Below, piece after piece: positions 1 through 32,987 of a DNA stretch of 64,000 nt. Both the position numbers and the translations under genes were made by a program. The stretch covers positions 1 to 64,000 of the IMG/VR virus record IMGVR_UViG_3300022555_000032; one strand, given 5' to 3'. The DNA is from a virus (Duplodnaviria; Caudoviricetes). The notes under the pieces were generated by a model. That model ran no database searches and had not been told where the DNA came from. It saw only the letters and a program-made list of their open reading frames with translations. Numbering within the stretch: position 1 is the first letter of the stretch; every line of letters begins with the position of its first letter.

Positions 1-14
1 AAGATATTATCAAT

Positions 15-3000
15 ATGCTTGAGAATACATTTGGAGAGAAAGGAAAACTCACTAACTGGATGGAAGCTAATCTTGGATTCATTCAAAAGAAGGTTGAAAA
101 CAGTGATGAAACAAAAGAGCATTCTCCATTACTTAATAATCCATTAGGAAGAATTGATGATAACCTTAAACAATCATATGAGGATTGGTATAAGAATAAA
201 TTGAAACCTAATGTAATTACTCCTATTCAGGCAAAGATCGATCGCAGTATAGCCGATAAGAAGATCAAACAGATGCGAAACATGGCAAATCGTGAAGAAT
301 TAGGTATTTCCTTCATAGAGATGCTTAATGTAGCCTTTGCTGGTAAACTTGATAAGGATGCTGAAAAAACCCTTGCTGATGCTGAAAAGGCATTGGATGA
401 TCTTTCAAAGATGGAGATCGATGGTAAACAATACGAAAGGCTTTATGATCTTCTTGATAAATATCTTAATCTTGATGATACTAAGCCAGAGACATTCCCT
501 ACTCGTAATGCAATAGAGAAAAGATTCATTGAGACACATCATATCATTGTCCAGGCATATACTAAACTCAGTGGCAAGTTAGGTCCGGTTGAACAAGAGT
601 TATTGGATAGCCTTGGAGAATATGTATATGATCTTAATTCCTTTGAGGTAAGATATGCTATTCGTAATGATAAGAGTGGTGATGTAGGTCTATTAACGGC
701 TGAGTCTTATGCTAAAGGTAAAGATGTATTTACCAAAATAAGATTCCAAGATAATGAAAAAAGAATCGCTTTAGGAAGACAAGATCCATTATCAGAGGAA
801 TATAGTTTCTTTCAGGAGTACTCCTTATATCTTGCTCATAGGATTAATGTAGCCGGAACTGAAGGATCTCCTACATGGGAACAGTTATACCAGATGTACG
901 ATGATGTTCTTAATAGTGAGTTTACTAAGGAAGGCAATCCTATCTATGGAGAAAACTCTAGACTAGGAACAGTAGAACAACAGGAAGCGCTTATTCATCT
1001 ATTAGGATGGTACTATAATCCAAGTCAGAAGTATCTTATTGATAATATTAAGAAAGATCAGTATGTAAAGAATAGAACATGGGATAATGCCATTCTTCTT
1101 CGTGCCTATTCTGGTACCGGAAAGTCAACATGGATGTTTCAACACTTCCTTAATGCTATCTTATTACAGAAAGGTATTACAGATGGAAAGTTCAAAGCAA
1201 CAGTAGTTCTTCCAAACTCAGGATTAACAAAGACCTTTAATGAGAATCTTAAGACTCTTAATGAGAAGTTTCCAAAACTAGAACTACAGATTATCTATTC
1301 AGACGATCTTATCAAAGGAAACATAATCGATGCTGATTCTGATTTCGTATGGCTTGAAGAAGCAAGTTTATACCGAAAGGAAGATGTAGCAAACATTCAT
1401 AAGAACATTGGAGATAAGAAAGTGATCATCGTAGGAGATGATGGTCAGACAACACCAGATGGATCTAATCCAACATGGTATACCTTCCAAGGAGTCTGTG
1501 AAAAGACACTGCCAATGACAGAGAGTTTCCGAGGGAACTCTTTAACTGTTTTTAACGATCTCTTCTCCTGGGGAAGACAACAGTTTTTTAATCCTATGAG
1601 TACTACTGGCATAGATTGGTCTACTATGTCTAAAGGTAAATGGAAGTTTGGTCAGGATGGAAGAGGCCCTATTGGACTTCGTGTTGTAAGGTCAAAGGAA
1701 GAGATACTGCAAGACTTTAAGGAATTCATGGGTATCATCAAGGGTCAGGACATGGAGTTTCCCTCAGAGAAGGAAAACGCTATCCTGATCGTTGCCACAA
1801 CTCTTGACAAGCAAATCCTTTTAAAAGAACATCCGGATCTTCAAAACTTCACTGATAATATCAAGACTATTCAGTATGATCTTGATTACATCATGGCTAA
1901 TGATAAATATCGTGAAGAGAACATATCTGGAATAGAAAAGGAATTCGTATTCATCTATTCTGATTGGTCAGCAAATAATAACATTGAAAAGAAAGACATT
2001 CAGGACTTAGCAACTGAAACCGGAACATCTCCTATTGATCCTTATGTCGCCAGTACTACGCTTGGTAAAACTCAGGCAAGACATATCTTAACTGCAACTA
2101 CAAGAGCAAAGAGGTTCTTAGTGATGATCAATCCTGAAGCTAATGAATCTACCCAGACAATTGATCATGCTTTACCAGATGATAAGATAGATGGTTTTGG
2201 ACCACATGCTCAAGAGACAACACCAGAACAGGTTCAGCTTATGCAAAGGATCTCTTCTGCAGCAATTGAAGGAAGACATAATTATACTAAGACTCCTGGT
2301 ACTGGTGGATCAGTCGTACAGAGTGATGATCTTATCTTCAATAGTGAGCTTACTACAAATGCAAAAAAAGAGCTGGCAACTAATGAGAATATCATAAAGT
2401 TCACCAGTCAACTATCTCCTACTTTTAATACTAATGATCAGCATGTTACTAACCTTACTCAATTAACATCATTACTATCTGAGAGTACTAAACCATCTGA
2501 AATAAGTACATCAAATGCGCTGGCTAATAATGTCCATAGGGAAGCAATCTTATGCGCCTTGGATCCTGATCGGTCAGAAGTAAAAGGAATAGCACTAATG
2601 GAACAATTCCTTGATGTTTATATGAAAGTTACATCTGTAACCTATAAGAAAGAAGATATTCCGGATATTGCTGAGACTGTATTCCATAGGTGGAAGATGC
2701 CTATTATCCAGTCTGATCTATCTAAGTTGATCAATAATCCTTTAGCAGTAATAGCTCATAATGTTTCCTTTAATGGATTCTCAGGAGAACCGCCTATCAT
2801 TGAAGTAGTAGGTTACGATAAGAAGACCAATAAGCCAATAGTAAACATTACTGATTTTACATTTGCCAATGTTACTGAAGCAAGTGAGTATTCGAAAAGC
2901 AAACTTGGAGTATATGCAGCCTTAGCAGAAGCCAATGGTGCTATTATCAATAGATTAAATATCATTCCTGTTCAAATCAATAGCAAGGGTAAGTTCATGG

Positions 3001-6000
3001 GAACCAATTATGGAGAAACCATTAACTTATCAATGGAAGAACGGTCTAAATATGTTCTCAATGGAAAGTCAATAGTAGGCTCTACAACACCTACAACGCA
3101 GACTTTTGCTTCAGTTGAACAAATGCTTCAATCTGCCAGGACAGTTGACTACGACTACGCAGGAATCAAAATAGGAGGATACTATTTCAATCGGACAACT
3201 GGCACCAGAGATCAGGTAACAGGACTTGAGATCAATGCCAAAGGTGATGTAGTAGTGAACATTGCTACTAAGAATGGAAGTAATAAAGCTTTCAAGTTGG
3301 ATACCTTTACTCAAACATTCTCTTTTGCTTCTATGAAGGACATTAATCCTTTATACAAAGAGTCTGCAGTATCATCCTTCAATGGAGACAAAGTAACCGG
3401 AACCTCTCATGCTTTTGCTATTGCTCCACTGATAGGATCATCATTACTTAATGGTAACTTCTATCAATCTAATATCATCAAACTTCGTCAGTTAGTAAGA
3501 GATAAGATAAGATCTCTGGGCCCACTGACCAAAAGACTATATGTTAATGGTAAGGATACTCTTGGATTAGTCTCTATTAATGACAATGGTAATGCTATTG
3601 AAGCTTATGATAACTGGAAGTATGTTGTTACCAATGAACTTGATGAAAGTCAGATAATAGGTCTTATTAGTAATAAATTATTTAATAAATTGTTACGAGA
3701 TAAGATTTATGTTAAACGAACAAAAACATACGAAAACCAACCAATAAGACCTGTATCATGGTCATCTATTGAGGAACTTAAGCAAAAAATTCAAAACGAT
3801 TTTAATAATAATCCAAATATTAATATTGCAAAATATGTTGAAGATTCAACTTCGTCGAATTATTCATTAGAAAAATTAAATGAATTTTATAATACTATCA
3901 ATAGTATTATTACTGATGAACAACTTTATCATATTTTTAAATCTTTTGGACTACACATTGTCTCCATGGACTATGAAAGCGAGTATGACTATAAGGATGC
4001 TGAAGGCAAGATCCCTTTAAAAATATTTGCAGATCCTAACTCAGAGATAAGTAAAGCTGCAGTTGACTATATTAATACTGGTAATGAGAAAGTCTTTGAT
4101 CTATTAAACAGAGATGGATTTACTCAAAGATACGTTCCGGCCGATCAGAAGAATCAGGATATTGCCAAGCAAGCTAATGTAGAACTTAACATCTACAGGT
4201 TGAAGATGATTAAGATGCTTCATGATGGTATTGAAGTAAAGACTACCATACAGGACACAAAGAGAAATCTTATCTATTCTGACGAACCAGTATCCTTTAA
4301 GGACTTTACTGAGAACATGGAGGCCAGGGGATTTATCTTTGAGATGAAGGGTAATAATATTGATATTGCTACCAAAAGAGTTAAAGTAGGAAAAAATAAA
4401 AAAACATTCTTTACTATTACTGCTAAGACTCCCGAAAAAACATACATTGAAATTAGATTCGATGGATCAAGATTAGGAACAGATCTTCATTCAGTTATCT
4501 CTACTTTATTATCCGGACTAGAACCTGATATTACTTTACAGGGAATGGGAAATGTCTTTGATGATCTTGATAAATTAGGAGATAAGATAGGTGAAATGAA
4601 AGGTATTGCTGATGAAGCTGCAAGGAAGATAACAGTAGGTCAGGCAGTACAGAACCTTCGTGATGCTTTTGATGAATTACCAGTAGTACAGTTCTTCCGG
4701 CATAATATGTCTGTCTTTAATGAACAGATGAAGACTAATGAAGCATTTAGAACTTATGCAAGTCAATTCTTTGATGTTGGACTACATTCAAGTAAAAAAA
4801 CTCAGGAGTTAAAGCCTAAAGGAGTTACGTATCAGTATCAGTTACAAATGATAAGTGATTTTCTTAAAGGTCTTACAGTTGATAAAAACGTATCTACTGA
4901 TGGAAGTATTCGTTTGAATAATGAAACAGAGGGATTCTACTTATACAATACTCCTTATACTGACTCAAAGGATACTGTTAATCCAAAGAACATTACTACC
5001 AATGTATCTGCAATAGGAGAACCAATGGTGTTTACTTTAAGAGATACTAACATACCAAAGAACAGTACTATCCGATTCATGCAGAGAGGTATCACTAATC
5101 CAAGTGATATCAAAATGACTAACATGGATCAGGTCACCAGAGAGGTCTATCGTATCATAGGACAGAGGCTAACCGATAATGATAGGATCTACTTAAAGTC
5201 TCCTGAAGAGATGAAGGCGATGTTTAATGATGATCTATACGGTGCTATGTTAGATGCTGCAATCTATCTTACAAAACTTGGAGATGGAACACTGGGTAAC
5301 TACTTTGCTGGCCGACATGAGGCATGGCACTTTGTACTTCATAACCTTTTGAATAACGAAACAGAGAACCGGATCCTTGAACTTACCAAAAAAGAAATGG
5401 TAAAGAAAGGACTAGCTAATTCTATTGAAGATATTACCGATTCTCAGGCACATGAATATGGTGCTAATATGTTCATGCGTGAAGACTATAAGAAGCATAC
5501 CTTACCAGGTCGGATATATCAAACCATTAAGAGATTCTTAACATGGCTTAAGATAACGGCACCGGATATCAACTGGTGGATGCGTAAGATTGACTCAGGT
5601 AAATATGCTGATGCTCCTATTCTTCAGAATGAACTTGAAGGAGTAATGTTTCCAATGAAGTCTAATTGGGAATATGGAAGTGATAAAGCACATGATAGAT
5701 TAAAGAAGACCTTTGGTAGTGATGATCGCTGGACCTCTATTGTCTCTGATCGTGTTATGCCTGAGTTAATGGATCATTCTCCTTACTCAAGACATTTCTT
5801 TGAAGCAAGGAACGCTGGATCAAAGAACATGATCAATCGTACCATAGATGCTTTCCTTGATAAGGAAAGTCAATTTGGACAAGAAAGAGTAACTATTAAT
5901 CAGACTATTAATGGAGAGAATGGTGAAGAGTCAGTAGTTCATAGATTTCAGTTACTAGTTAGTGAAATGACTACTGAAGATTATATGGTCGCTATGTCAA

Positions 6001-9000
6001 GCAATACCCAGGATAATCTCAGGGCCATGTATAAGTATGAGAACTATCATCTTTCTAATCCTAATATACTTCTTCCAATGATCCAGCATATCTTCGGATC
6101 GGTAAATATTCAAAAGATACTTGATGGTCAGCATACTCCTAAAGTAACAGGGATATCAGCATGGAGTAAAGATTCAGATATCATCATGCCGGAACAGTCC
6201 TTAAGCAAGATGTTTCTTCTTCTCTTCAACTCAATGCCTTTATGGGATTACAATACAAAGAAGATCAGTAGAGACGGAAGACGTAATCCTAAAAGGGTAG
6301 ATGCAAAGAATCTTGATACCTTAATGATGACTGTATCAACTCTTCTTCAGGAATCAGGCAAACCTATTAACGATAGATCCTTCTTACAAGCGTTTAAAGA
6401 CGTTATTAAGGCACACCCAGGGATTAAGTCAGGTCAGCAGATGGAACTTGTCAATACGGCTTATTCTTTCCTTATGGAGTGGGGAGAGAACCCAGAGAGT
6501 AAAGGTATAATTTATGATCCGGTAAAAGGAGAGTTTGTATCTGAAGAAGGTAGTGATCCTCCTATTGGAAGATGGGAAATGATCAATAATGCAGATATGT
6601 GGTCAGGTGCTCAAGGAACTCCTACAAGATCATTAGGAAGACAGTCTGCAGCACGACATGACTTTGAGATGGATTTTCAATCTATGATGGAGAACTATCG
6701 TGATGCTTTCTCAATACTTAAGACCTATTATCTTTCAAGATATTCCAGAAGGCAAGCTCAGTTTAATACCTACTTCGTAGACGGAACCTACTTTGACTTC
6801 AATACTAATACTAATAGTGATCTTAAGATATTCTTAAGCAACATCAGGGGTGTATTAAAAGACAATCTTTATACTACTGAAGGAACTCAGATAAATGAAA
6901 GCACAATCGATGCTATCATGCCAGGGGATAATCAACAGTATGACATTGACCTTGTAAAAAATCAGTTATTAAGGAAGGTAAAAGATGGAGATAAGTTTAA
7001 ATTCATTCCGGTACTTGGACATGACTTAGGAGTATCTACTGAACTAGTTAAATTTATGAAGTTCTTAGGACTTGATGGATTTAATGAAGAGATATTCTCA
7101 GCACTTAAGGAAGACTATCGTAGAGAAGTTCAGTCTAACCTGGTAACTGCATTTAAGTTATTGAAGTTAGGTGCTTTAATAACCAAGTTTCAGAATAATA
7201 ATCATTATGATGTCAATGAAGAAGGATCCGGTAAGAATTTCTTATCTGCTATGTCTTCCCTGGATACTCCCGATGCAAAAGAGATAGTATCATTGATCAA
7301 CTCTATTGAAAAGGACTATGCCAAGAAGGAGAATCTATTTGATCTTACAAACATATCCAATCTTAAAAAGGCTAATCTATACCAGGTAAGCCAAGGAATG
7401 AAACTTCCTGAGATCATGGATATGCATAAGTTCTTCGAAGGTATATCTACTCCTTACAACTACATTAAAGATGTCTTTGCTTCCAGAGTAGTAAGAGGTG
7501 TACTTGGAACTTATAAATCAGAGAATCCTTTAGGCAGTCTTATTGCTCAGATGTTTGCCGGAACTACTACTTCCAATAGCAGATTAGCAGTCGATATCCA
7601 AAAGAGAGCCGAAGATCATATTTCCAATGGACTGAAGATTGAGTCTCCATTCTTCTCGAAGGGAGAGAATGGTCAGCCAGTGTTCAATAATCCTATAATG
7701 AGCAAAAAGATCTCCATGGACTATCTCTATACCATGGATGGTGTTGAGGGATGGAAGAACGCTAATGAGTGGACTACGATGTCTGTAAACGATAAATTAC
7801 GTGGTCTATTCGAAGCATGCGTATGGGGCAATCAGATCATTACTGGAAGCAAGAGTAATGTTCCTTCCTTTCCAGCCTTCATTGATACTTTATCAGATAA
7901 GAAGTCAAAATACTTCACTGTTATCCGTTTCATGGACAAACAGTATGCTCAACAATCTTTATTGTTTACAGAAAGAGATCAGTATAAGCATAAGATCAGA
8001 GAGACTATTGTTAATGGTGCTGCAGTAGGGTCTATCCTTATTGACTTTGTGAAGTATTACGATGCTCTTAGGACTACTACTAAAGAACGGTTTGATAATG
8101 CCAAAGGAAACACCTTCAATCTTGTAAAGGATCGTGACTATGTAGTAAACAAAGACGGAAGCATAGGATTAGGCAATGCTATCATTCAGCCTAACAATCC
8201 TTATAATAACATTCACCTTGAACCTAATTCAAGCGACATTGATGTTTACAACTCAGCCAAGAAAGCACATCAGCAATTCTATGATAACTTAGTTGCTATT
8301 ATGAATGATGCTGCTTATCAGATGCCTACTCATATTGCCTCACAGTTTGCTACTTTCCCTGTAGAAGATATTTCATATTCAGAAGCTATAACAGATAAGA
8401 TCCAGGCTAAAGAATCAAAGAGTCTATCTGAATGGAGAAAGGAAGCTGAGAAACTAACTCATATCTCCCGTAATGAAGCCGGTGTAGTAGAAGATGGAGA
8501 GGATGATAATTCTAAAGCGATCTGGAAACATTATAAGACTATTCAGGACCATGCGGTTCAACAGATGGTTAAATCCGGATACAAGTATATTTCTTCAGAT
8601 GGTAATGTTATCTGGCACCCGATCATTGAAGCAGCTTACTGGGGCCACCATATCTTCAACGAATCAGTATCTCATTTGATCAGAGGAAACCAATTCGAAT
8701 ACCATGATGTAGTTGACTATATCAAAAGAGGAAGCGGTATCACCATTGAAGGACTGAATTATAATGTCAATCAGAATGAAGATAATATTACCGGAATAGC
8801 AAAGGAGAGTAGAATACTTATCACTAAGGATATTAAGTTTGATGATCCTTACTATGGAAAAACTAATAAGTTATTCGATGGTGCTATGTATCTTAATCCG
8901 GTAGATGCACTTGACTATGAGCATGCCATGGGTGGACTGATAGGTATCCTTGGAGACGGACCACAAAAGAATGTTCTCTTTCAGCATGATCCAGTAGCAT

Positions 9001-12000
9001 ACAACTCTCTTTATGTCAAGATGGACCACTTCCCACGATCAGCTTATGATTATGAGAATAGTGATATTGACAAACAGATGGTTCACATGATGCTTGGACC
9101 AGTTATTTCAAAATGGTTAACAGAGTATTACGAACCTCTTGTTAAGAATCCTTTGACTCCTGTTGAACTTGAATCTCTATCAGGTCAATTAAAGACCGAT
9201 ATAGAACGAGGGTACGATGATGAAGGTAATGTAGTCAAGATGATAGGAAACCTTCCTGTAACCATTAAAAACCGACTTCTTAGTGATTTTAATGATGCTA
9301 TACTTGATGTAAGCAGACATTTACAGAAAGACGAATGGATCATCAATGGAAAGGAATATGATACTAAGGAGTTAAGAAAAACGATGATCAACTGGATAGG
9401 CTTTGAAAGTACTATCAAGACCGGAATAACAAGAGTAAATGATCTCTTCAACTCCCAGGAAGGAGAATTAAGTCATATCGGAAAAGCTATTGAGGATCCT
9501 ACTTATGATCTTAACGCATTATTCAATAGTGATGATAAGCTGATTACTGTTAACAATGCCAATCTTAGACTTCAGACCATTACAGCACAAGGAACTGAAA
9601 GCACAATGAAGAACTATCCTACTCAGATATCTAATATTATAGGTATCATGGATAAGAACTCAGCCTATGGTAAAGCAATTCAAAATGCTATTGCCGGATT
9701 CGTAGGTGTAGCTGCAGAAAAACTTGATGCAATGTCTCCAAAAGAGATAACGGATATGCTTGCTAAACGAGGATCCAAATACCTTTACGAAAGAGGTGAT
9801 GGTAGTTTAATGAGCAAAATTCTTTCTGATCCTTCTATTGTGCCGGATGTAGTAAGAGCAAAACAGTTACTTGAAGTAGTCAACTATTTCAATGACTATA
9901 TCAAACCGGACATGCCAGGTAATACCTACATTCAGGAACCTTCTACACATCAGTTATTCGTAATCAAAGATGCTAATGGAAAAGAATTACTTCATGGATG
10001 GAGAGATCTTAACGGAACACAAAAGATAGATGTTCAGAAAAAGACTGGTATCATTTCCAGAAGAGGACTTCAGAGTGCTAGGTATGTAGTTGATAATTCA
10101 GAAATCAATCCTGAGACTGGTAAAGGATATACTAAGGAAGAGATCAAGTCAATCATTAATTCTGATCCTTCAAGAGTACAGTATCGTCCTGCAGATCTTA
10201 TCCTTGCTTATCCTAATGCCCGGGAGTTTGGAATAACTAATGAGAATACCCTTGCCTCAGTAGTATCATATCATCAGGATGGAAAGCTTTATAGTCTTTA
10301 TGAAGAATGGAATAATCGTTGGACTAATGAGATGTATCGTGATTTCTTTACTAATCTTTGGGCCGATAAGACTACTGATGATATCCTATTAGGATTTGAT
10401 GCTAATGTAAGCAAACAGATAAGAAGGAATGCTCAAAAGAGAACAGAGAAACTAGGTCGTGCTATCTTTAAGGATGATCTTGTAATAGCTGCAGCAAACT
10501 ACTTCCATAATTTCAATAATTCCCTTGATGTATTCTTTACCCGTATTCCTACCTCAAATGCTTCCTCAGCTTCAGTAGCCAGGATAGTAGGATTTGTTTG
10601 GGATAAACAGAACTCTGCAGTACTTAATCCTAATAAGAATCTCTTTGATGGATCCGACTTTGACTCTGACCCGTTACAGTTATACTTTAGGACCTTTGAT
10701 AGAGAAGGAAGACTTTCTCAGGAAGGAGAAGATAAGCTGGATGGATTTAGGAACAATCTCTTTGAAGCCTTTAGAGGTTATTACATGGACTCTACGCATA
10801 ACTTTGATATGGTGACTGAGCCTATCGAACTTCAGCGCTTAAGAGATATCAGAGACCACAAGATGGATACTGATAAGAGAACTCAGTTAGGATCCACTCT
10901 TGGAACGATGTTCGACATGGACTATGTTAACCACATGAGTAAGAACATGGTTGGTTTTATGGCTAACATAGAGAACTTTGTCGGTAAACTTCTTCATCTT
11001 TCATTCCAGGAGAGAACAACTCTTGCTGATTCAGGTGCCCTATCAAAAGAATTAGGACTACTTGTTGATCCTTCTCAGCAACAGCATATACCAAAAGCAA
11101 TATCTTTTATAGCCAATCTTATCAATGCTGCTACGGACTCCGCTAAAGAAGGAGGACTATTAGGATCTCTTAACCTGGACTATCAGATTACTAATCTTGT
11201 CCTTGGTATGATGTTAACCGGAACTCAGGAAGGTAACTTCACTGATGAAATATTCAGCCAGTTAGTATCTAATGAGGAAAAGACTAGGGGAGTAGTCGAA
11301 TCTCTTATCAATAAACAGAAAAGGATTAAGATTGACGATTATCATACTAATCTGTTAATGAGTCTTTCAGCTATTCGTAATACTTATAAGGATGCAAAAG
11401 ACGATGAGTCAGTAGCAATATGTAATCAATTCCTTAAGTATGCAGTAATCGGCCAGGCGGTCCGTAACTTAGGATCTATAGCACGGATTCAAAGCAGGGA
11501 ACTTGATGTTAAAGCTGCTAACTTCTACATGCTTAAAAATGAAGTTGAGTACGCACTTGGATCATCACTTGAAGACTTCCTTAAGTTATCAGAGGATCCT
11601 TCGTCTGAAACCTTTAAAAACAGGTATGCGGTTAATGAACAGATCGGATGGGTTGAGCAACATTCCCCAAGCAATAAATCAAAGAACAAGAAGGGATATT
11701 TATTCGAATCAGATATCCGGTCCACGATAAATGTTCCTTACATAGTTTCCCTTCAGCCTAACTTAAAGGCAATGGTCGTTGCCCTTAACTCAGCTTATAA
11801 GGCAATGACTAAGGTATTTGTTAACGAAAGGGTACAGTCTATTGATGGAACTCCTTTAATAATGAGTGTCATAAGCCAAAAACTTAATCCAAAGAATCCT
11901 GGTGGACTGAAATATGAAGCTCAGTTCGAAGCCTATGAGTTTGCTATGAGACAAACCTTGGTAGGACTATACCTTAATGATGAATTTACTGATTTAGTAC

Positions 12001-15000
12001 AAAGCACTATTGATGATAATGGAAAATCTTCTACAAGAAAATACAATCTATCTTCTAACTTTAGCCGTTACTGGTTTGCTGCCAACTTCCCCGATTATGT
12101 CAGGAATCTTAAGAATCAGTATACAAAGAATCTGTTTATAGATAGATTAGAAAGTCTATCGGATAAAAGACTAGGACTTACCAAGACTGTATTTGTAAAC
12201 AGTAACTACCTGAGTAATGCTCAAAAGGCAATGTATCACGAATCCTTTAACCAGCTTCCATTAGATGTAAAACGTAACTTTCATGCCTATCAACTCTTAT
12301 TAAATGGCTTTGAACAGCGTAATGGTGGTTATTTTGACTTAATGGACAAGGATATCGCTACTAACTACTCTAACTGGCAAAAAGAAAGAGCAACTAATTC
12401 AAGGATCTCTTCTTTATCTGATAAGATAGCTGAAGATATCATAGTAAAAAGATCAGATGCTTTCATAGATAGAGATAATAGCAAGAAACCATGGAAGACC
12501 TATTATAAACAGATTGGAAGTAAGTTCTTTAATCCAAGGATCTATAAGATGGTCAATGGTGAACCTACTCCTATTAATAACATCTATCCTGAATGGCTTA
12601 ATACCTATGGCGCTCTTGAATCAAATGTGTCTTATGAAAAGACCTTTAAGTATGCTACTCCTAAAGAACTAAAGATACTACATGAAAAGGGAACAATCAA
12701 CTTAGCCAGACCTTCTATTAGTCTTACTACCGGAAAGAAACTTGACGAAAAACAATCTGAATTCCATTATGTAAGAAGTGAAGATACTGTTGTTCTTCCG
12801 GATGGAAGTGTAGGAATTATCAGGAACCAGACCTATGAGAAAGATGGTGTAACAAAGGAGAACAATAAGCGTGTTGTCATTACTTTACAGCAACCTAAGT
12901 ATTATGCTAGGTTTGGACAATCAACGGTAAGGAATGGATCCAAGATGGCCGAACTCTTTGTTGATCGTTTAAAGAGGCTTATGCCAATGATCGATATTAA
13001 AATAGGTACTTCAATGGATACTGATGGAGCCTTGGCTAAATTCAACGATAACGGATCACTAACTATCAATGAAGAGTTATTATCACCGGAAACAGCTATC
13101 CATGAATTAGCACATCCTCTTTTACTCATTAAAAAGTACATGGATCCTGAAGGTTATCAGAAGATGGTAACTGAAGCCAATAAATTCATGGACGAAAATC
13201 CTGTCTTTGCTCAGAAAATGAGACAAGAGTATAATATCAATGATAAGGTTGCCTTCGAGATGGAGGTAATAGCAAATATCGTTGGTCTTAACTCCTTTAA
13301 GAATATGCAAGCCTATTTGAACTTCCATGGTATTACTCAACCGGATATCCAATGGAGCTTCTGGAAGCGAATGAGAATGCATATTGAACAGTTCTGGAGT
13401 AGTATGCGTAAGATCATAGGTCAAGTCTTTGGAATAGACAGATCATTCAAAGGGAATACCATATCTGATCTTTCGAACTATCTCTATGACTCATGGGTAA
13501 GTGGATCCATGGTAACTGCTATTACATCACAGGAATTATCAGCGATGATGAATGGTGGTACCTTCAGTAGTAGATTTGCCTCAGAGTCTATAAAGGACAC
13601 TGGTGGACTACTTAACGAACTTCGCAATACTTCCAATCAAGCTGAATGGACAGATGAACAGAAGATAGCTGAAGCCAGGAGATGCATTAATCCTCTAACT
13701 GGAAAAATGAGTGACTACTTTGATCCGGCTGAAACAAAGTTTGCTGAAACTGATTCACCAGCATCTAAGGATAAGCTTCTTAAGTTATACAAAGCCTTTA
13801 ATGGAAAGAGAAATGAATATGCTAGTCAATTCATTAGATGGATAAAAGAGACTGGTGGATCAACTTCTAAGGAAGCCTCTATAAAGTACTTTGGACAGAA
13901 CGAAAGGGGTGAACCATTAATCGCTACCGGAAACCTTGAAACATTAAAGAGACAACTTAATTTCGGATTTGAAGACACTAAGTACTATCTATATAATGAT
14001 CTTTCCGGAACCGAACACAAGGACCTTTATCATCCAGACCTTAAGATGGACAATGTCATTGTCTCAATTAACAAGATAGATGGTAGAAGAGTAGTTAATA
14101 TCTACTCTATAAGTAAGGAAAGGATTGGTGGAACATCTACCTTAACGAATGGAAAAGGATTGATTGATGGATTAATGAATATGCGTAATGCTGCAGTAGC
14201 CGGAATAGATTACAATAGCACAAATGAAGATGTTGCAGCTGTCGGAATAGGATTGATTCATCGTTACCTGGTTAACACCTTTGATGATGTTGATGTAGAC
14301 AACATAGGCTATATCAATGTAGCAATGAGTGAAAAGAAAACCAACGACCTCTATATGATTGATCCGGTAAGGAACAGAAGAAACATTGAGGCGCTTTCCC
14401 GTATTCCTTCATTCATGAGTAGTCTTTCTAATGGATTGATAAAGGAGATATTCCAATATACCAACTTGAGAGATGCTAATCCGAACTATGAAGAGATGTT
14501 AAAGAGCTTCTATAGATTCAATAATCAGGACGATCTATGGAAGAGCAATATGAATACCTTCATTCTTGATAAGAACAACCTATCTGATCAGGACAAAATC
14601 TCCATTGTAAATACCAGGTTAAGGACTTTGCTTGGAAACAGAACTGAAGATACCATGAATAAGTGGGGTCCAATGGATTTGAAGGAAGTTAACCTATTAC
14701 TTCATACTCTTAAGGATCTTCGTTACATAGGATTCATGTCGGGCCAGATGAATGAGTTTAATGGTCCTAACAAGTTTGAGATGCTTTTAAGCGATGGTCC
14801 AAGCATAAGTAATGATGATATCCAGTTTGCCCGTAGAGTTGCTACAGAGACCTCCAGGGGCATTGTACGAGATATGAATGAGACTAAGAAGAAGATCAAC
14901 TTTGCCTTCGATCATTTCAGAAAAGAATATGCCTCAACAAAGGTTTATCTTAATGATGCTTCCAAGACAATGTTCGATAGGCTATTTGCTACTATGACTG

Positions 15001-17216
15001 CCTATGATAATGGTACTCCAGTTGAAAGACCTAATGGATTTATCTTGTTCAGCAGAGACTCAAGAGAGGATAAATTCGCTCAGCAAGCTATTGATCGTGG
15101 ATTAACTGATGAAGACCTTAAAGCTTCTAAAGCATTAGTAGATGCTATTCACGAACAGATGGTTAAGAATTTCATGCATGCAAAGAATAGTCTTGGTTAT
15201 ATCTATAAGGCTGATGGAACTGAATACACTGTAGAAGATGCAGAAAAGGATCTATTAGCCGAAACCTCCTATCAAAAAGGAATGATTCCTATTATTCAGA
15301 TGTCTTCCAGCGAACAACTTTCCCAGGCATTTGGAGATATGGACTTCGCAGCCTTTGGTAAAGCTTTAAAAGCAAAGATGTTCGAAATGACAAATATGAA
15401 TGAACTCTTTGCCAATATGGATCAGCAAAATTCTATAGATGAATCGTCAAGCACATTAGGAAATGTCTTCTGGTGGCAATTTGGGTTCAAGCAACTTACA
15501 GATAAGACGGAATTTGGCTATAAAGGAAGGATGGAAACCATGCTTGGCTTGAGACTTGAATCTAAACCAGATGGTACACCTTTCTGGAATGTGGTACGTG
15601 AAAATGGACAAACTCAGTCTAAAAGCGAAACAGTATCCCGGGATCTTGAGATGATCACCAACTACTTCCTTCTTACAAGCAAGAGAAGTATTGAATATGA
15701 AGAGAATGTTCTTCCGGTAATCAATGGTATCAAAGTACACCTGAGAGACCTTAAGACTAATGCTAACTTAGCCAAGGAATTTGAGACTGAAAATGTCATT
15801 AAGTACCTTGACTTATTTACCGATCATGCAATAAAGAGTAAAAGGATTCCTACTTTCGGACCTGGTGGAGTAAACTTGGATAAGAGTGTATTGGTTGCTC
15901 AGAACATAATAGCGCCCTACTTCCTTACCTTAAACTTCAATATAGGTATTATCTCAGCTATGAGTAATGGTCTCTTTGCTCACATTGAAGGAGTAAGTAG
16001 GACTCTTGTTAAAGTCTTCCACGATGCCGATATGCCTTACTTTGGAGAAGGAAACCTATTAACAGCTTCAGCCAGATTCTTTGATAATTTTGCTCTTATG
16101 GGTCAAATCATGCAGGAATATCAAGTAATGGATATGTCTGAAATGAGCATGGTAAGCGGAAGGATCAGAAGTAGGACTAAGAAATCTGTAATATCTGACT
16201 TTTGGGGCAACTGGTTTAACTGGTCTTCTGACTTCTACGCAAGAGGTGTAGTTGCAATGGCCCAGATGATGAAGGATGGATCCTGGGATGCTCATTACAT
16301 TAAAGAAGATGGTACTCTTGGATATGATGTAAAAAAGGATAGAAGGTTCTATAACGAAGATGGTACAAGAACTAAAGAACAAGAAGTCCTTTACGAGAAT
16401 ATGAAAAGAATGCAGATTAAAGACGGAATCATTAAGCAAGGAGAGGAACTTAAGTTAGCCTATGATCTTCAGACCATGGGAACACTTAAATTCTTATCTG
16501 ATAAATATGTAGTAGGATCCTTTGATAATACTGTTAAAGCTATGATTGGAGCTTCAACTGTTGGAGCTGCCTTTAAACTCTTTAAGACGTGGTTCTTCTC
16601 CAGGGTGACCAATGCTTTTCAGAACGGAACTGATCTTGACTCAGGTGGCTTCTATGTAACCGAGAAAGATAAGAACGGTAATGTTATTCCTAAATGGCAA
16701 AGGATTCATGTCGAAGGTTACTTAAGAACCTTATGGGATTTCGAAAAGGCTATAATGGTAGGAAAGGGAACTTCTTATTTAAAAAATACCACTGTAGAAC
16801 AGAAACAGAACTTGTATAAACTTGCTCTAAATCTTACCTTATCAATAGGTGGTATCATGATGTTTGCTGCATTAGTACAGGGATTTAACTCTACTGATGA
16901 AGAAAGAAAGAAGAAACCTATTCCTCCTTATCGTTTAATCCGGAATATTAAATACAGTCTTGAATCATTACTGGTCCTTCCAGTAATCTTTGAAATGATA
17001 CAGTCTCCATTTGCTTCTATGAACATTCTTCATAATATCTTTATGGATCCTTTCGGAAACTGGAGAATAGCTGCAGGTAAATTTCCAGCGCCTACTCAGA
17101 TTACTTCCATAGAAGAAGTCTTTAAAGGAATGGACCAGGTTCGTAAGGATAGAAAAGAAAAGGCTAAAGAAACTTCAGAAGAAAAAAAATTAGAGAATTT
17201 AACCATTAATCAATAA
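15..17216 (+). CDS. Giant virion RNA polymerase polyprotein (crAss-like), 5'-truncated; SF1 helicase + degenerate PD-(D/E)xK + zincin + double-psi-barrel RNAP + zincin + helical C-terminal domain
   Basis: RNAP signature R-I-P (aa 3510) followed by GSDFDSD (aa 3546-3552); Walker A AYSGTGKST (aa 364-372) with SF1 motifs; HEAWH (aa 1768) and HELAH (aa 4363); frame is open upstream of nt 15 (D-I-I-N-M), so the true start is probably outside the window. Confidence 0.85.
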   Translation: MLENTFGEKGKLTNWMEANLGFIQKKVENSDETKEHSPLLNNPLGRIDDNLKQSYEDWYKNKLKPNVITPIQAKIDRSIADKKIKQMRNMANREELGISFIEMLNVAFAGKLDKDAEKTLADAEKALDDLSKMEIDGKQYERLYDLLDKYLNLDDTKPETFPTRNAIEKRFIETHHIIVQAYTKLSGKLGPVEQELLDSLGEYVYDLNSFEVRYAIRNDKSGDVGLLTAESYAKGKDVFTKIRFQDNEKRIALGRQDPLSEEYSFFQEYSLYLAHRINVAGTEGSPTWEQLYQMYDDVLNSEFTKEGNPIYGENSRLGTVEQQEALIHLLGWYYNPSQKYLIDNIKKDQYVKNRTWDNAILLRAYSGTGKSTWMFQHFLNAILLQKGITDGKFKATVVLPNSGLTKTFNENLKTLNEKFPKLELQIIYSDDLIKGNIIDADSDFVWLEEASLYRKEDVANIHKNIGDKKVIIVGDDGQTTPDGSNPTWYTFQGVCEKTLPMTESFRGNSLTVFNDLFSWGRQQFFNPMSTTGIDWSTMSKGKWKFGQDGRGPIGLRVVRSKEEILQDFKEFMGIIKGQDMEFPSEKENAILIVATTLDKQILLKEHPDLQNFTDNIKTIQYDLDYIMANDKYREENISGIEKEFVFIYSDWSANNNIEKKDIQDLATETGTSPIDPYVASTTLGKTQARHILTATTRAKRFLVMINPEANESTQTIDHALPDDKIDGFGPHAQETTPEQVQLMQRISSAAIEGRHNYTKTPGTGGSVVQSDDLIFNSELTTNAKKELATNENIIKFTSQLSPTFNTNDQHVTNLTQLTSLLSESTKPSEISTSNALANNVHREAILCALDPDRSEVKGIALMEQFLDVYMKVTSVTYKKEDIPDIAETVFHRWKMPIIQSDLSKLINNPLAVIAHNVSFNGFSGEPPIIEVVGYDKKTNKPIVNITDFTFANVTEASEYSKSKLGVYAALAEANGAIINRLNIIPVQINSKGKFMGTNYGETINLSMEERSKYVLNGKSIVGSTTPTTQTFASVEQMLQSARTVDYDYAGIKIGGYYFNRTTGTRDQVTGLEINAKGDVVVNIATKNGSNKAFKLDTFTQTFSFASMKDINPLYKESAVSSFNGDKVTGTSHAFAIAPLIGSSLLNGNFYQSNIIKLRQLVRDKIRSLGPLTKRLYVNGKDTLGLVSINDNGNAIEAYDNWKYVVTNELDESQIIGLISNKLFNKLLRDKIYVKRTKTYENQPIRPVSWSSIEELKQKIQNDFNNNPNINIAKYVEDSTSSNYSLEKLNEFYNTINSIITDEQLYHIFKSFGLHIVSMDYESEYDYKDAEGKIPLKIFADPNSEISKAAVDYINTGNEKVFDLLNRDGFTQRYVPADQKNQDIAKQANVELNIYRLKMIKMLHDGIEVKTTIQDTKRNLIYSDEPVSFKDFTENMEARGFIFEMKGNNIDIATKRVKVGKNKKTFFTITAKTPEKTYIEIRFDGSRLGTDLHSVISTLLSGLEPDITLQGMGNVFDDLDKLGDKIGEMKGIADEAARKITVGQAVQNLRDAFDELPVVQFFRHNMSVFNEQMKTNEAFRTYASQFFDVGLHSSKKTQELKPKGVTYQYQLQMISDFLKGLTVDKNVSTDGSIRLNNETEGFYLYNTPYTDSKDTVNPKNITTNVSAIGEPMVFTLRDTNIPKNSTIRFMQRGITNPSDIKMTNMDQVTREVYRIIGQRLTDNDRIYLKSPEEMKAMFNDDLYGAMLDAAIYLTKLGDGTLGNYFAGRHEAWHFVLHNLLNNETENRILELTKKEMVKKGLANSIEDITDSQAHEYGANMFMREDYKKHTLPGRIYQTIKRFLTWLKITAPDINWWMRKIDSGKYADAPILQNELEGVMFPMKSNWEYGSDKAHDRLKKTFGSDDRWTSIVSDRVMPELMDHSPYSRHFFEARNAGSKNMINRTIDAFLDKESQFGQERVTINQTINGENGEESVVHRFQLLVSEMTTEDYMVAMSSNTQDNLRAMYKYENYHLSNPNILLPMIQHIFGSVNIQKILDGQHTPKVTGISAWSKDSDIIMPEQSLSKMFLLLFNSMPLWDYNTKKISRDGRRNPKRVDAKNLDTLMMTVSTLLQESGKPINDRSFLQAFKDVIKAHPGIKSGQQMELVNTAYSFLMEWGENPESKGIIYDPVKGEFVSEEGSDPPIGRWEMINNADMWSGAQGTPTRSLGRQSAARHDFEMDFQSMMENYRDAFSILKTYYLSRYSRRQAQFNTYFVDGTYFDFNTNTNSDLKIFLSNIRGVLKDNLYTTEGTQINESTIDAIMPGDNQQYDIDLVKNQLLRKVKDGDKFKFIPVLGHDLGVSTELVKFMKFLGLDGFNEEIFSALKEDYRREVQSNLVTAFKLLKLGALITKFQNNNHYDVNEEGSGKNFLSAMSSLDTPDAKEIVSLINSIEKDYAKKENLFDLTNISNLKKANLYQVSQGMKLPEIMDMHKFFEGISTPYNYIKDVFASRVVRGVLGTYKSENPLGSLIAQMFAGTTTSNSRLAVDIQKRAEDHISNGLKIESPFFSKGENGQPVFNNPIMSKKISMDYLYTMDGVEGWKNANEWTTMSVNDKLRGLFEACVWGNQIITGSKSNVPSFPAFIDTLSDKKSKYFTVIRFMDKQYAQQSLLFTERDQYKHKIRETIVNGAAVGSILIDFVKYYDALRTTTKERFDNAKGNTFNLVKDRDYVVNKDGSIGLGNAIIQPNNPYNNIHLEPNSSDIDVYNSAKKAHQQFYDNLVAIMNDAAYQMPTHIASQFATFPVEDISYSEAITDKIQAKESKSLSEWRKEAEKLTHISRNEAGVVEDGEDDNSKAIWKHYKTIQDHAVQQMVKSGYKYISSDGNVIWHPIIEAAYWGHHIFNESVSHLIRGNQFEYHDVVDYIKRGSGITIEGLNYNVNQNEDNITGIAKESRILITKDIKFDDPYYGKTNKLFDGAMYLNPVDALDYEHAMGGLIGILGDGPQKNVLFQHDPVAYNSLYVKMDHFPRSAYDYENSDIDKQMVHMMLGPVISKWLTEYYEPLVKNPLTPVELESLSGQLKTDIERGYDDEGNVVKMIGNLPVTIKNRLLSDFNDAILDVSRHLQKDEWIINGKEYDTKELRKTMINWIGFESTIKTGITRVNDLFNSQEGELSHIGKAIEDPTYDLNALFNSDDKLITVNNANLRLQTITAQGTESTMKNYPTQISNIIGIMDKNSAYGKAIQNAIAGFVGVAAEKLDAMSPKEITDMLAKRGSKYLYERGDGSLMSKILSDPSIVPDVVRAKQLLEVVNYFNDYIKPDMPGNTYIQEPSTHQLFVIKDANGKELLHGWRDLNGTQKIDVQKKTGIISRRGLQSARYVVDNSEINPETGKGYTKEEIKSIINSDPSRVQYRPADLILAYPNAREFGITNENTLASVVSYHQDGKLYSLYEEWNNRWTNEMYRDFFTNLWADKTTDDILLGFDANVSKQIRRNAQKRTEKLGRAIFKDDLVIAAANYFHNFNNSLDVFFTRIPTSNASSASVARIVGFVWDKQNSAVLNPNKNLFDGSDFDSDPLQLYFRTFDREGRLSQEGEDKLDGFRNNLFEAFRGYYMDSTHNFDMVTEPIELQRLRDIRDHKMDTDKRTQLGSTLGTMFDMDYVNHMSKNMVGFMANIENFVGKLLHLSFQERTTLADSGALSKELGLLVDPSQQQHIPKAISFIANLINAATDSAKEGGLLGSLNLDYQITNLVLGMMLTGTQEGNFTDEIFSQLVSNEEKTRGVVESLINKQKRIKIDDYHTNLLMSLSAIRNTYKDAKDDESVAICNQFLKYAVIGQAVRNLGSIARIQSRELDVKAANFYMLKNEVEYALGSSLEDFLKLSEDPSSETFKNRYAVNEQIGWVEQHSPSNKSKNKKGYLFESDIRSTINVPYIVSLQPNLKAMVVALNSAYKAMTKVFVNERVQSIDGTPLIMSVISQKLNPKNPGGLKYEAQFEAYEFAMRQTLVGLYLNDEFTDLVQSTIDDNGKSSTRKYNLSSNFSRYWFAANFPDYVRNLKNQYTKNLFIDRLESLSDKRLGLTKTVFVNSNYLSNAQKAMYHESFNQLPLDVKRNFHAYQLLLNGFEQRNGGYFDLMDKDIATNYSNWQKERATNSRISSLSDKIAEDIIVKRSDAFIDRDNSKKPWKTYYKQIGSKFFNPRIYKMVNGEPTPINNIYPEWLNTYGALESNVSYEKTFKYATPKELKILHEKGTINLARPSISLTTGKKLDEKQSEFHYVRSEDTVVLPDGSVGIIRNQTYEKDGVTKENNKRVVITLQQPKYYARFGQSTVRNGSKMAELFVDRLKRLMPMIDIKIGTSMDTDGALAKFNDNGSLTINEELLSPETAIHELAHPLLLIKKYMDPEGYQKMVTEANKFMDENPVFAQKMRQEYNINDKVAFEMEVIANIVGLNSFKNMQAYLNFHGITQPDIQWSFWKRMRMHIEQFWSSMRKIIGQVFGIDRSFKGNTISDLSNYLYDSWVSGSMVTAITSQELSAMMNGGTFSSRFASESIKDTGGLLNELRNTSNQAEWTDEQKIAEARRCINPLTGKMSDYFDPAETKFAETDSPASKDKLLKLYKAFNGKRNEYASQFIRWIKETGGSTSKEASIKYFGQNERGEPLIATGNLETLKRQLNFGFEDTKYYLYNDLSGTEHKDLYHPDLKMDNVIVSINKIDGRRVVNIYSISKERIGGTSTLTNGKGLIDGLMNMRNAAVAGIDYNSTNEDVAAVGIGLIHRYLVNTFDDVDVDNIGYINVAMSEKKTNDLYMIDPVRNRRNIEALSRIPSFMSSLSNGLIKEIFQYTNLRDANPNYEEMLKSFYRFNNQDDLWKSNMNTFILDKNNLSDQDKISIVNTRLRTLLGNRTEDTMNKWGPMDLKEVNLLLHTLKDLRYIGFMSGQMNEFNGPNKFEMLLSDGPSISNDDIQFARRVATETSRGIVRDMNETKKKINFAFDHFRKEYASTKVYLNDASKTMFDRLFATMTAYDNGTPVERPNGFILFSRDSREDKFAQQAIDRGLTDEDLKASKALVDAIHEQMVKNFMHAKNSLGYIYKADGTEYTVEDAEKDLLAETSYQKGMIPIIQMSSSEQLSQAFGDMDFAAFGKALKAKMFEMTNMNELFANMDQQNSIDESSSTLGNVFWWQFGFKQLTDKTEFGYKGRMETMLGLRLESKPDGTPFWNVVRENGQTQSKSETVSRDLEMITNYFLLTSKRSIEYEENVLPVINGIKVHLRDLKTNANLAKEFETENVIKYLDLFTDHAIKSKRIPTFGPGGVNLDKSVLVAQNIIAPYFLTLNFNIGIISAMSNGLFAHIEGVSRTLVKVFHDADMPYFGEGNLLTASARFFDNFALMGQIMQEYQVMDMSEMSMVSGRIRSRTKKSVISDFWGNWFNWSSDFYARGVVAMAQMMKDGSWDAHYIKEDGTLGYDVKKDRRFYNEDGTRTKEQEVLYENMKRMQIKDGIIKQGEELKLAYDLQTMGTLKFLSDKYVVGSFDNTVKAMIGASTVGAAFKLFKTWFFSRVTNAFQNGTDLDSGGFYVTEKDKNGNVIPKWQRIHVEGYLRTLWDFEKAIMVGKGTSYLKNTTVEQKQNLYKLALNLTLSIGGIMMFAALVQGFNSTDEERKKKPIPPYRLIRNIKYSLESLLVLPVIFEMIQSPFASMNILHNIFMDPFGNWRIAAGKFPAPTQITSIEEVFKGMDQVRKDRKEKAKETSEEKKLENLTINQ
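10656..10670 (+). other. RNAP catalytic DxDxD motif (DFDSD)
   Basis: gac ttt gac tct gac, 38 codons after RIP at 10542; matches the spacing in two-barrel RNAPs (NADFDGD; DFDID in phi14:2-type enzymes). Confidence 0.85.
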
Positions 17217-31896: not shown

Positions 31897-32066
31897 CCTC
31901 CATCGATATTAAAGTTAGATTCTACATATTGTTCTTTTGTAGGTAATGGACAATCATCCGGAATAGAATTAAGATCAATTCTTCTGTTTAATAGGAAGCA
32001 ATCACCTAATTCCTGATCACAATTTCCACAATCATGGCAACATGTAATTTCAAGTATCTTTATCAT
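31893..32066 (-). CDS. Small Cys-rich protein (57 aa, not in ORF track)
   Basis: MIKILEITCCHDCGNCDQELGDCFLLNRRIDLNSIPDDCPLP...; ATGA overlaps on both sides. Confidence 0.65.
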   Translation of the reverse strand: MIKILEITCCHDCGNCDQELGDCFLLNRRIDLNSIPDDCPLPTKEQYVESNFNIDGG

Positions 32067-32755
32067 AATGCTCCGTTATCAGCAAAAGAATAGTATTCAT
32101 CACCGCCTACAATTATATGATCTAATACTGCACATTCAAGTAATACTCCACAATCTTTAACTCTCTTAGTTATGGTATGGTCAGCATCACTAGCCTGGAT
32201 TGATTTTGAAGGATGATTATGTCCTAATATCATTGAAGAAGCATGATTAGAGAGCGCCAGTTGAAAGATCTTCTTTGGATCAACTACCGTACCGGATACA
32301 CCACCTTCGCTTATCTTAACCGTTCTAATGACCTTATTTGCTCTATTCATAAGTATGCACCAGAACTCTTCATATTGAAGATCTGATAGTATTGGATGGA
32401 AGATATCAAAAGCATCTCTTGACTTGGTTATCTTACCCATTTCTAAAGCTTGGTTAAGAGATCTTCTCTTACCTAATTCAAAAGCAGATAGTAATGTAGT
32501 AGCTTTTTGAGTTGTTAATCCAAGGAATTTAAGATCACCAATACTCATTTTAGCTATCCTATTAAAATCATTATTAGCTTCCTTTAGAATTGACTTGGAT
32601 AACTCAAGGAGATTGTTATTACATGATCCACCACCTATAATGATACATAGTAACTCAGCATCGCTTAAGGCATTTTTACCTTTAACAAGCATCTTATAGA
32701 CTGGCTGATCTTCTTTCACCCAGTCTTTCATTGGAACTTGATCAGTGGAGATCAT
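32063..32755 (-). CDS. radC: RadC/JAB-domain protein
   Basis: LSDAELL; YEEFW; GGVSGTVVDPKKIF; HNHPS...S.AD...T...LDHII; start moved to ATG at 32755. Confidence 0.9.
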   Translation of the reverse strand: MISTDQVPMKDWVKEDQPVYKMLVKGKNALSDAELLCIIIGGGSCNNNLLELSKSILKEANNDFNRIAKMSIGDLKFLGLTTQKATTLLSAFELGKRRSLNQALEMGKITKSRDAFDIFHPILSDLQYEEFWCILMNRANKVIRTVKISEGGVSGTVVDPKKIFQLALSNHASSMILGHNHPSKSIQASDADHTITKRVKDCGVLLECAVLDHIIVGGDEYYSFADNGAL

Positions 32756-32987
32756 CTTCGATAATGACTTTAGTACAGATAATCTCTTTGTTACCCTTAA
32801 TATGTTTAAGGAACCATTTTCCCTTATGTTCTTCATTCATAAGGATTTCAGCTTCATTAATAGTGACAGGAGTATAATAGTATAATCCTCCTTTAATGAA
32901 TTCAACAGCTAATGTTTGAGTAGGTTCATCATAGCCTAACTTGCTTATTAACTGTGAGTATACTGGTATTAAATCAATCTTTACCAT
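32742..32987 (-). CDS. KTSC-domain protein
   Basis: SQLISKLGYDEPTQTLAVEFIKGGLYYY.PV...GKWFLKHIK; start moved to 32987. Confidence 0.85.
   Translation of the reverse strand: MVKIDLIPVYSQLISKLGYDEPTQTLAVEFIKGGLYYYTPVTINEAEILMNEEHKGKWFLKHIKGNKEIICTKVIIEDDLH

Follow-up and report, generated by a model that had tools for sequence, protein, structure and literature searches.

How can an RNA polymerase that reads single-stranded DNA (ssDNA) start on the duplex genome with which it enters the cell? The polymerase gp66 of phage phi14:2 transcribes ssDNA and denatured DNA, but not double-stranded DNA, and the related enzyme QDE-1 needs both the helicase QDE-3 and RPA. The question is raised here by one gene of an uncultured, crAss-like tailed phage (Duplodnaviria; Caudoviricetes), the IMG/VR record IMGVR_UViG_3300022555_000032, of which positions 1 to 64,000 are the stretch of DNA that was analysed (hereafter, the window). 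This gene encodes a giant protein in which a predicted superfamily 1 (SF1) helicase lies in the same chain as the catalytic region of a putative virion RNA polymerase, and a conserved, apparently competent helicase in this position would provide a directly testable answer to the duplex-start problem of a polymerase that requires ssDNA. The preferred reading, to which a probability of about one half is given, is that the helicase opens or clears the entering duplex for the tethered polymerase, while the domain that lies behind it may guide the strand.

All eight of the motif strings quoted in the original prediction, which was made from the letters of the window, are present in frame 3 of the + strand, at nt 1104-2939, and those of the helicase are AYSGTGKST (nt 1104-1130), WLEEASLY (1350-1373), IVGDDGQ (1428-1448), LPMTESFRG (1509-1535), and TATTRAKRFLV (2091-2123). 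A Q-like motif found upstream of these strings is part of the helicase (Table 1), and puts its start just before the point from which the module had been drawn. The conservation of the motifs was judged on an alignment of six sequences, that is, the window protein, its giant relatives P0002-P0005, and a shorter relative, P0006. Two other alignments were set aside, A2, in which the ends of a short C-terminal fragment were scattered over the whole giants, and A3, in which P0006 was misaligned after motif IV. Motif Ia is a conserved P-[NT]-x-x-L, motif II follows [DE]-E-x-S, with its second Glu invariant, motif IV has [FY]-R across the family, and motif VI follows the pattern T/S-x-x-S/T-R. The first residue of motif II is variable, with E-E in the window protein, P0002, P0003, and P0005 (EEVS), and DEAS or DESS in P0004 and P0006. 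In motif V, all of the giants have SG and the V that follows it, P0006 has QG, and the placement of this motif by HHalign is ambiguous. The residues of Walker A and of motifs III, IV, and VI are conserved in the homologues, which bears out the prediction of an SF1 helicase and means that the motifs are no chance resemblance.

Profile comparisons indicate the group to which this motor belongs. When compared using HHalign, the six-sequence profile matched a profile of five Dda-like phage helicases (crAssphage gp14, cr110_1, Klebsiella phage F48 Dda, Flavobacterium phage Fpv1, and the domain of cr118_1) with a probability of 98.3% (E 1.8e-14), and a relaxed -mact setting extended the alignment from the Q motif to motif VI. 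Against single Escherichia coli sequences, the same profile returned 92.8% for RecD (E 4.1e-7) and 1.2% for RecB, the latter over the P-loop only. In the phage's own 85-kb genome, the sole match of Pfam AAA_30 is at 1086-1457 (21.6 bits, E 6e-6) and that of UvrD_C_2 is at 2043-2129 (12.5 bits, on motif VI), with both the positions and the order of the two being as expected. Viral_helicase1 (PF01443) found no match in this genome, and UvrD-helicase found none in the window protein. The shorter relative, P0006, passes the curated thresholds of AAA_30 (34 bits), AAA_19, and SLFN-g3_helicase, and matches the window fragment with an E of 9e-7.

The structure prediction that had been proposed as a check gave models of low confidence, and the Foldseek matches of these models are to RecD, Dda, Pif1, Dna2, and viral SF1 helicases (including 7mr1_D, 6sjb_D, and 3upu_A). 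Neither a fold other than SF1 nor a loss of the Walker residues in the homologues, either of which would have counted against the prediction, was observed. Profile searches of the PDB using P0006 and alignment A5 recovered a weak match to Dda only (9kwf_B, E 0.5). The label "RecB/AddA-like", under which the module was first described, does not hold, given the HHalign probabilities for RecD and the Dda-like set versus RecB, and a motif II, (D/E)E-A-S, that is of the SF1B type. An SF1A (UvrD-like) motor was considered and rejected on the same low value for RecB, a motif II of the DEAS type rather than DE[FY]QD, and the lack of a UvrD-helicase match. The sequence evidence identifies window 963-2129 as an SF1B (RecD/Dda-type) helicase core, which is complete although diverged. 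The motor also appears to be catalytically competent, with the columns that remain invariant at 23-50% identity being the nucleotide-binding and coupling residues, a pattern that would be expected of an active ATPase.

This core is embedded in a very long open reading frame (ORF), in frame 3 of the + strand, which is open at the window start and free of stops from 3 to 17216. The record is a circular assembly of 85,427 bp, in which the first and last 127 bases are identical, and once this terminal overlap is removed, the frame at positions 81976-85300 of the record (G000) continues in phase into that of the window, which means that the gene wraps around the record start. The full gene has 6,846 codons (~780 kDa), with no stop across 20.5 kb, and the N-terminus of its product aligns with that of the 6,826-aa homologue P0003. 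A single chain of 6,846 aa is supported by this lack of stops, together with the existence of collinear homologues of 6,431-6,834 aa. The residues of the module had been given as aa 340-1000, counted from an internal Met at window 15 (5,733 codons), and while the segment itself stands, its true position is 1,113 residues further on, at aa ~1,450-2,110. The placement of the helicase ahead of the polymerase is confirmed, with the two sharing one reading frame and ~3,180 residues separating the helicase from the downstream DFDSD motif.

Relatives of this protein were sought by a word-indexed search and by an exhaustive phmmer search of 1.84 billion cluster representatives, which together yielded four giants, P0002 (6,431 aa), P0003 (6,826 aa), P0004 (6,834 aa), and P0005 (6,679 aa), as well as P0006 (417 aa). 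All five are without names, and each is a metagenome singleton. In the exhaustive search, a 671-aa fragment matched only three of the giants and P0006. All four giants are collinear with the window protein from end to end of their own sequences, at identities of 41-50% (P0002 and P0003) or of 22-33% in blocks (P0004 and P0005), and the collinear blocks take in both the helicase and the domain behind it, at the same position. The N-terminal extension of the giant protein, of ~1,100 aa, is glycine-rich and partly hydrophobic. The 671-aa fragment had no match in PHROGs, a chance match only in the PDB (phmmer), and no tblastn match in 50,697 phage records. A search of proteins of 369-1,175 aa for relatives gave none, and no locus could be confirmed when the protein and alignment A1 were used to search viral contigs for homologous loci.

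The domain behind the helicase had been described as a dead nuclease, with the layout H..E / DxK / QL..YA, and contains the remaining quoted strings, NNVHRE (nt 2526-2543), ITDFTF (2847-2864), and KLGVYAALAEANG (2901-2939). The layout stands in part. The Y-A-A-L-A element is invariant in all five giants, as are G-x-P, h-h-G-[YFI]-D, P-I-x-x-I, and an Asn, but HRE is kept only among the three that are closely related, and two of the five have Asn or Val in place of the Asp of "DFT". At the position of motif III, the five giants have DFT, NFT, DFT, DIH, or VIA, with no Lys in any of them, and at the position of motif II, as aligned to phage nucleases, they have E, T, K, E, or K. The phage PD-(D/E)xK nucleases share a D-h-h-x-h-D ... 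D-x-K-T pattern, and in an alignment made by eye, the invariant Asp of the giants corresponds to the second Asp, that of the hairpin.

The features of the ESM language model point to the PD-(D/E)xK group, with values, for a 205-aa and a 130-aa version of the domain, of 0.93 and 0.91 for PDDEXK_1 and 0.92 and 0.90 for Cas4, and 0.89 for Dna2. These features count as a single line of evidence, and are a lead by the method's own statistics. Both structural models contain a strand (..VVGYD), a strand (IVNITDFTF), a helix (..YAALA..), and a further strand, with a predicted local distance difference test (pLDDT) score of 50-76, and the spacing of the motifs is within the range of the PD-(D/E)xK family. 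The helicase domain took up the VIA-align wide and Foldseek lists. A PD-(D/E)xK fold has about even odds, and if the domain does have this fold, it is very probably not a nuclease. The missing Lys and the ESM features support the description as a dead nuclease, while the searches with PDDEXK_1 and HHalign, which are set out below, do not. According to Yutin et al., at least one PDDEXK nuclease is a hallmark of the crAss-like phages, and a Pfam scan of ten ORFs of the replication block, for a PD-(D/E)xK nuclease that might serve for comparison, found none.

A C-terminal nuclease of the RecB family, with D, (D/E)xK, and QxxxY, was rejected, given the lack of the Lys, the variable acid, and the HHalign probability of 0.1% against the RecB nuclease. 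The same comparisons bear on the suggestion that the module mimics or antagonises the host RecBCD or AddAB. The order of a motor followed by a nuclease-like domain does resemble that of RecB and AddA, and the protein would be delivered together with linear DNA ends in need of protection, but there is no specific similarity to RecB, with HHalign probabilities of 1.2% for the motor and 0.1% for the nuclease, and the phage inhibitors of RecBCD known to us are small proteins, which makes this explanation highly improbable.

The identity of the polymerase, as the two-barrel core of the crAss-like phages, is based on the DFDSD motif (10656-10670), which is of the DFDxD type described by Drobysheva et al., together with the gene order and weak profile matches to the crassvirus cr118_1. 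The region had no tblastn match in phages and no sequence match in the PDB. Between the helicase and the polymerase lies a zincin-like domain, which HHalign aligns with aa 2098-2299 of crAss001 gp47 (67.7%, E 4.9e-5). A second HExxH motif, HELAH, is found at window 13101-13115. The HExxH domains could act as zincin-like proteases, by which the chain would be processed into individual virion proteins, and the giant chain appears to fuse the equivalents of gp47, gp49, and gp50 of crAss001.

The gene order leads from the terminase, portal, and major head protein with tail-spike-like virion proteins to the muzzle, two ORFs of a size typical of cargo (566 aa and 827 aa), and the giant gene. The muzzle protein is recognised by crAss_MUZ (PF25731) with 51.8 bits, in comparison with a cut-off of 27, at G000 73616-77812, and in the phage collection, the terminase closest to that of this phage belongs to cr118_1. 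The order in crAss001 is alike, with the muzzle, the cargo genes gp45 and gp46, and then gp47, gp49, and gp50, and the products of its gp44-gp50 block have been detected in virions by mass spectrometry. Because the gene order matches that of crAss001, and considering these mass spectrometry results and the phi14:2 data, the giant protein is probably a capsid cargo that is ejected into the host before the DNA or along with it. The terminase large-subunit ORF of this phage, at window 56238-59420, is unusually long (1,060 aa), and its PHROG terminase matches start only at residue ~245, which leaves an N-terminal extension outside them. The leftward gene block includes a RadC-like JAB domain protein (32063-32836, PF04002, 132.7 bits) and a PcfJ-like protein (34685-35971, PF14284, 115.2 bits).

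Table 1. Features of the giant gene, in window coordinates, and the basis of each assignment.
Feature	Position	Strand	Basis
Giant virion-block ORF, in-window part	3..17216	+	Frame continuous over the 127-bp terminal overlap; match to the N-terminus of P0003
SF1B (RecD/Dda-like) helicase core, Q-like motif to motif VI	963..2129	+	aa 1,430-1,818 of the full-length protein; profile matches
Q-like motif T-x-E-Q	963..992	+	Upstream of the quoted motifs; part of the helicase
Motif I / Walker A GTGKST	1113..1130	+	GTGKS invariant in 6/6 sequences
Motif II / Walker B EEAS	1344..1373	+	Paired by HHalign with DEaSM of Dda-like helicases
Motif III VGDDGQT (GD..Q)	1425..1454	+	G, D, and Q invariant
Motif IV TESFR	1509..1535	+	Arg invariant
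Probable motif V NISGIE..FVFIY	1920..1958	+	SG instead of the usual QG; family alignment
Motif VI ARHILTATTRAKRFL	2073..2129	+	Arg invariant; UvrD_C_2 positions 24-52; HHalign to motif VI of the Dda family
Linker, poorly conserved	2130..2500	+	pLDDT ~25-30 in both models
Putative PD-(D/E)xK-like domain without catalytic residues	2526..2978	+	aa ~1,950-2,101 of the full-length protein, ~150 aa; ESM features, topology
HEAWH, zincin-like domain shared with cr118_1 and crAss001 gp47	5316..5330	+	Giant-protein hidden Markov model against cr118_1, independent E-value (i-E) 2.6e-4
Polymerase catalytic region RIPTSNASS ... DFDSD	10542..10670	+	DFDSD at 10656-10670; matches the DFDID region of cr118_1, i-E 1e-4

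In the mechanism proposed here, the giant protein would be packed and ejected in this manner, and after refolding in the cell, its helicase would spend ATP in translocating along a single strand of the phage DNA as it enters. Such translocation would open the duplex, or clear proteins from it, next to the tethered polymerase, and the opened duplex would supply an ssDNA template of the kind required in vitro by the homologous polymerase of phi14:2. The domain that follows the helicase, for which the most likely identity is a PD-(D/E)xK fold now devoid of the catalytic Asp and Lys, would bind DNA or guide a strand, in the manner of the dead nuclease domain of RecC, rather than cut DNA. An opening or clearing role is the most economical one, because the phi14:2 polymerase needs ssDNA and QDE-1 needs a helicase and RPA, and among the functions suggested in the original prediction, the opening of DNA for the virion polymerase is the one with the best indirect support. 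A more specific version, in which the SF1B motor and a strand-guiding nuclease fold form an injected "open and transcribe" machine that hands one strand directly to the tethered polymerase, is put forward as a tentative possibility, at clearly less than even odds.

Delivery into the cell would also suit a motor of another kind, a translocase anchored at the ejection channel that pulls the genome into the cell, comparable with the polymerase-driven internalisation of T7 and N4. The protein is probably ejected cargo, its N-terminal extension is glycine-rich and partly hydrophobic, hydrophobic segments have also been noted at its C-terminus, and the fusion of a single-strand translocase to a channel-associated cargo is geometrically possible. 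The SF1B helicases track on ssDNA, however, whereas the entering genome is double-stranded, most crassviruses are without the domain, and the location of the giant protein at the channel is purely hypothetical, so that a role in genome entry seems quite unlikely.

The opening or clearing of DNA for the polymerase can be considered in the light of a precedent. The crassvirus cr118_1 (Suoliviridae) has a giant ORF of its own (MT774379.1, 16381-31221; QOR58373.1; 4,946 aa), with HEAFH at 1,734, DFDID at 3,209, and a Dda-like helicase at ~4,440-4,946 (AAA_30, AAA_19, and UvrD_C_2). This ORF is annotated as "DNA helicase" in GenBank and as "exonuclease V" in RefSeq, with its polymerase content being absent from the annotation. 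Its helicase is canonical (AAA_30, 94.7 bits, or 96.9 bits in the search against cr118_1), and is closely related by homology to the standalone SF1 helicases that are found in the replication blocks of other crassviruses, such as the Dda-like helicases of cr110_1 and of crAssphage, where gp14 lies beside the uracil-DNA glycosylase (UDG). No other match to the junction region of cr118_1 was found among the phage records. Profile A5 found no match in crAss001, phi14:2, or cr118_1, but this two-row profile is too weak to be informative, given that AAA_30 did find the helicase of cr118_1.

The cr118_1 ORF and the window protein are alike in having a zincin-like HExxH, a DFDxD core, and an SF1B helicase in one chain. 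They differ in that the helicase of cr118_1 is C-terminal, after the polymerase core, whereas that of the window protein is upstream of the core, and in that the former is canonical, with no nuclease-like domain found with it, whereas the latter scores below the threshold and is followed by a nuclease-like domain. The fusion of a helicase with a polymerase is, as such, already present in a reference genome, and the window protein is not a new kind of system. The novelty lies in a helicase that is upstream of the polymerase and strongly diverged, in its pairing with a nuclease-like domain devoid of catalytic residues, and in the inclusion of the whole block in one protein of 6,846 aa. A full-text search of the literature found no paper that joins the Crassvirales, a helicase domain, and an RNA polymerase. 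Yutin et al. list the SF1 helicase only among the conserved genes, and none of the passages retrieved assigns it to the transcription block.

A number of results weigh against a helicase that opens DNA for the polymerase. The window protein is under the Pfam threshold for AAA_30 (18.2-21.6 bits, in comparison with 27), and both AlphaFold models are poor (mean pLDDT of 46.7 and 50.6), with the two-domain fold being only partly modelled. The E-E of Walker B in this protein and in P0002, P0003, and P0005, together with the SG of motif V, means that ATPase activity is not assured. For the domain behind the helicase, PDDEXK_1 gave no hit across the whole 85-kb genome (E<=10), and HHalign gave 0.1-0.2% against the RecB nuclease and four phage nucleases, where a positive control of similar depth, the set of four nucleases against the RecB nuclease, gave 79.8%. 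Pfam AAA_30 also finds no helicase in the corresponding blocks of crAss001 or phi14:2, from which it follows that the polymerase does not generally need a helicase in cis. In addition, the helicase is the sole SF1 helicase of the genome, and could serve in replication or recombination.

Some of these results would also suit a degenerate, non-enzymatic relic, in which a dead helicase and a dead nuclease form a scaffold similar to RecC or a surface for the binding of DNA. The E-E of Walker B, the loss of the motif V Gln, the low Pfam scores, and the loss of catalytic residues from the adjoining domain all fit such a relic, and RecC itself combines an inactivated helicase with an inactivated nuclease. 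The invariance of GTGKS, the second Glu of motif II, GD..Q, and the Arg of motifs IV and VI at 23-50% identity argues for the retention of function, however, which makes a relic unlikely.

The main rival is an ordinary Dda-like helicase of replication or recombination, or one that removes obstacles, which was captured into the giant gene and is delivered early, either to free the entering DNA of host proteins or defence complexes or to start replication, with no specific role in transcription. Its AAA_30 and UvrD_C_2 matches are the only ones in the 85-kb genome, in other crassviruses the replication block has a Dda-like SF1 helicase gene that stands alone, and the fused helicase of cr118_1 is closely homologous to these standalone genes. 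The Dda of T4 is able to displace proteins from DNA. Even so, the domain keeps one internal position in the five giants, through a divergence to ~23% identity, and is far more diverged from the Dda-like helicases than is the copy of cr118_1, which suggests a long adaptation to a virion protein. The independent second fusion to a polymerase protein in cr118_1 also argues for a functional link. A captured helicase of this type is considered to be doubtful, at well below even odds, and the motor for DNA entry, the inactive relic, and the mimic of RecBCD are less likely.

The opening or clearing of DNA by a helicase in cis would have a number of implications for the crassvirus virion polymerase, whose giant partners in crAss001, gp47 and gp50, are without assigned activities. 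Taken together with cr118_1, where the helicase is elsewhere in the chain, the window protein suggests the recurrent capture of helicases by this block. If the "open and transcribe" machine were true, it would explain how the crAss-type virion polymerases, which in vitro read only ssDNA, start on a duplex genome, and would show that the position from which the helper is provided in cis can vary between lineages.

Comparison with known systems places the window protein among several partial counterparts. The Neurospora QDE-1 is similarly a two-barrel polymerase that prefers ssDNA and works with a helicase, although QDE-1 and QDE-3 are separate eukaryotic proteins, and act in a process of RNA silencing. 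QDE-3 is a RecQ-type helicase, of superfamily 2 (SF2). The Dda of T4, the RecD of E. coli, and the Dda-like phage helicases share with the window helicase the set of motifs, including (D/E)E-A-S, and a compact core of ~390 aa, but these are standalone proteins or subunits, whereas the window helicase is embedded in a protein of 6,846 aa. It also differs from the Dda family in the E-E of Walker B, the SG of motif V, and a shorter region between motifs IV and VI.

The RecB, AddA, and AdnAB proteins have a comparable arrangement, with a motor followed by a C-terminal nuclease domain, as in window 963-2129 and 2526-2978, and Foldseek aligned AdnA over 783 columns, at a low probability of 0.38. Their motors are of the SF1A type, however, and their nucleases keep D, (D/E)xK, and QxxxY, whereas the window domain has neither the Lys nor a conserved acid. 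The RecC of RecBCD consists of inactivated helicase and nuclease folds that serve as a strand guide, and is a precedent, in terms of function, for a PD-(D/E)xK fold that guides ssDNA beside a motor without catalysis, although the motor of the window protein, unlike that of RecC, appears to be competent.

The closest setting is that of crAss001 gp47, gp49, and gp50 and phi14:2 gp66, which resemble the giant gene in lying behind the muzzle and cargo genes, in their DFDxD core, and in their zincin-like domain, but are encoded by separate genes, with no AAA_30 helicase in the block. The crAss001 gp47 (2,341 aa) has intact PD-(D/E)xK motifs, GEVD, YDVK, and QLSAY, at aa ~1,730-1,830, where PDDEXK_1 scores 11.8 bits (E 0.007 per genome), and it is annotated as a virion "RNA-polymerase subunit", without nuclease activity. 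Direct homology between the domain behind the helicase and gp47 alone is undetectable by HHalign (0.1-0.2%). The motifs of gp47 precede, by ~300 aa, its zincin-like region, which is the one matched by the giants, and the nuclease-then-zincin order is the same as in the window protein. This shared order is compatible with an ancestral nuclease domain, and the possibly dead nuclease of the window protein, next to the intact motifs of gp47, hints at an older nuclease part of the block that was disarmed in this lineage.

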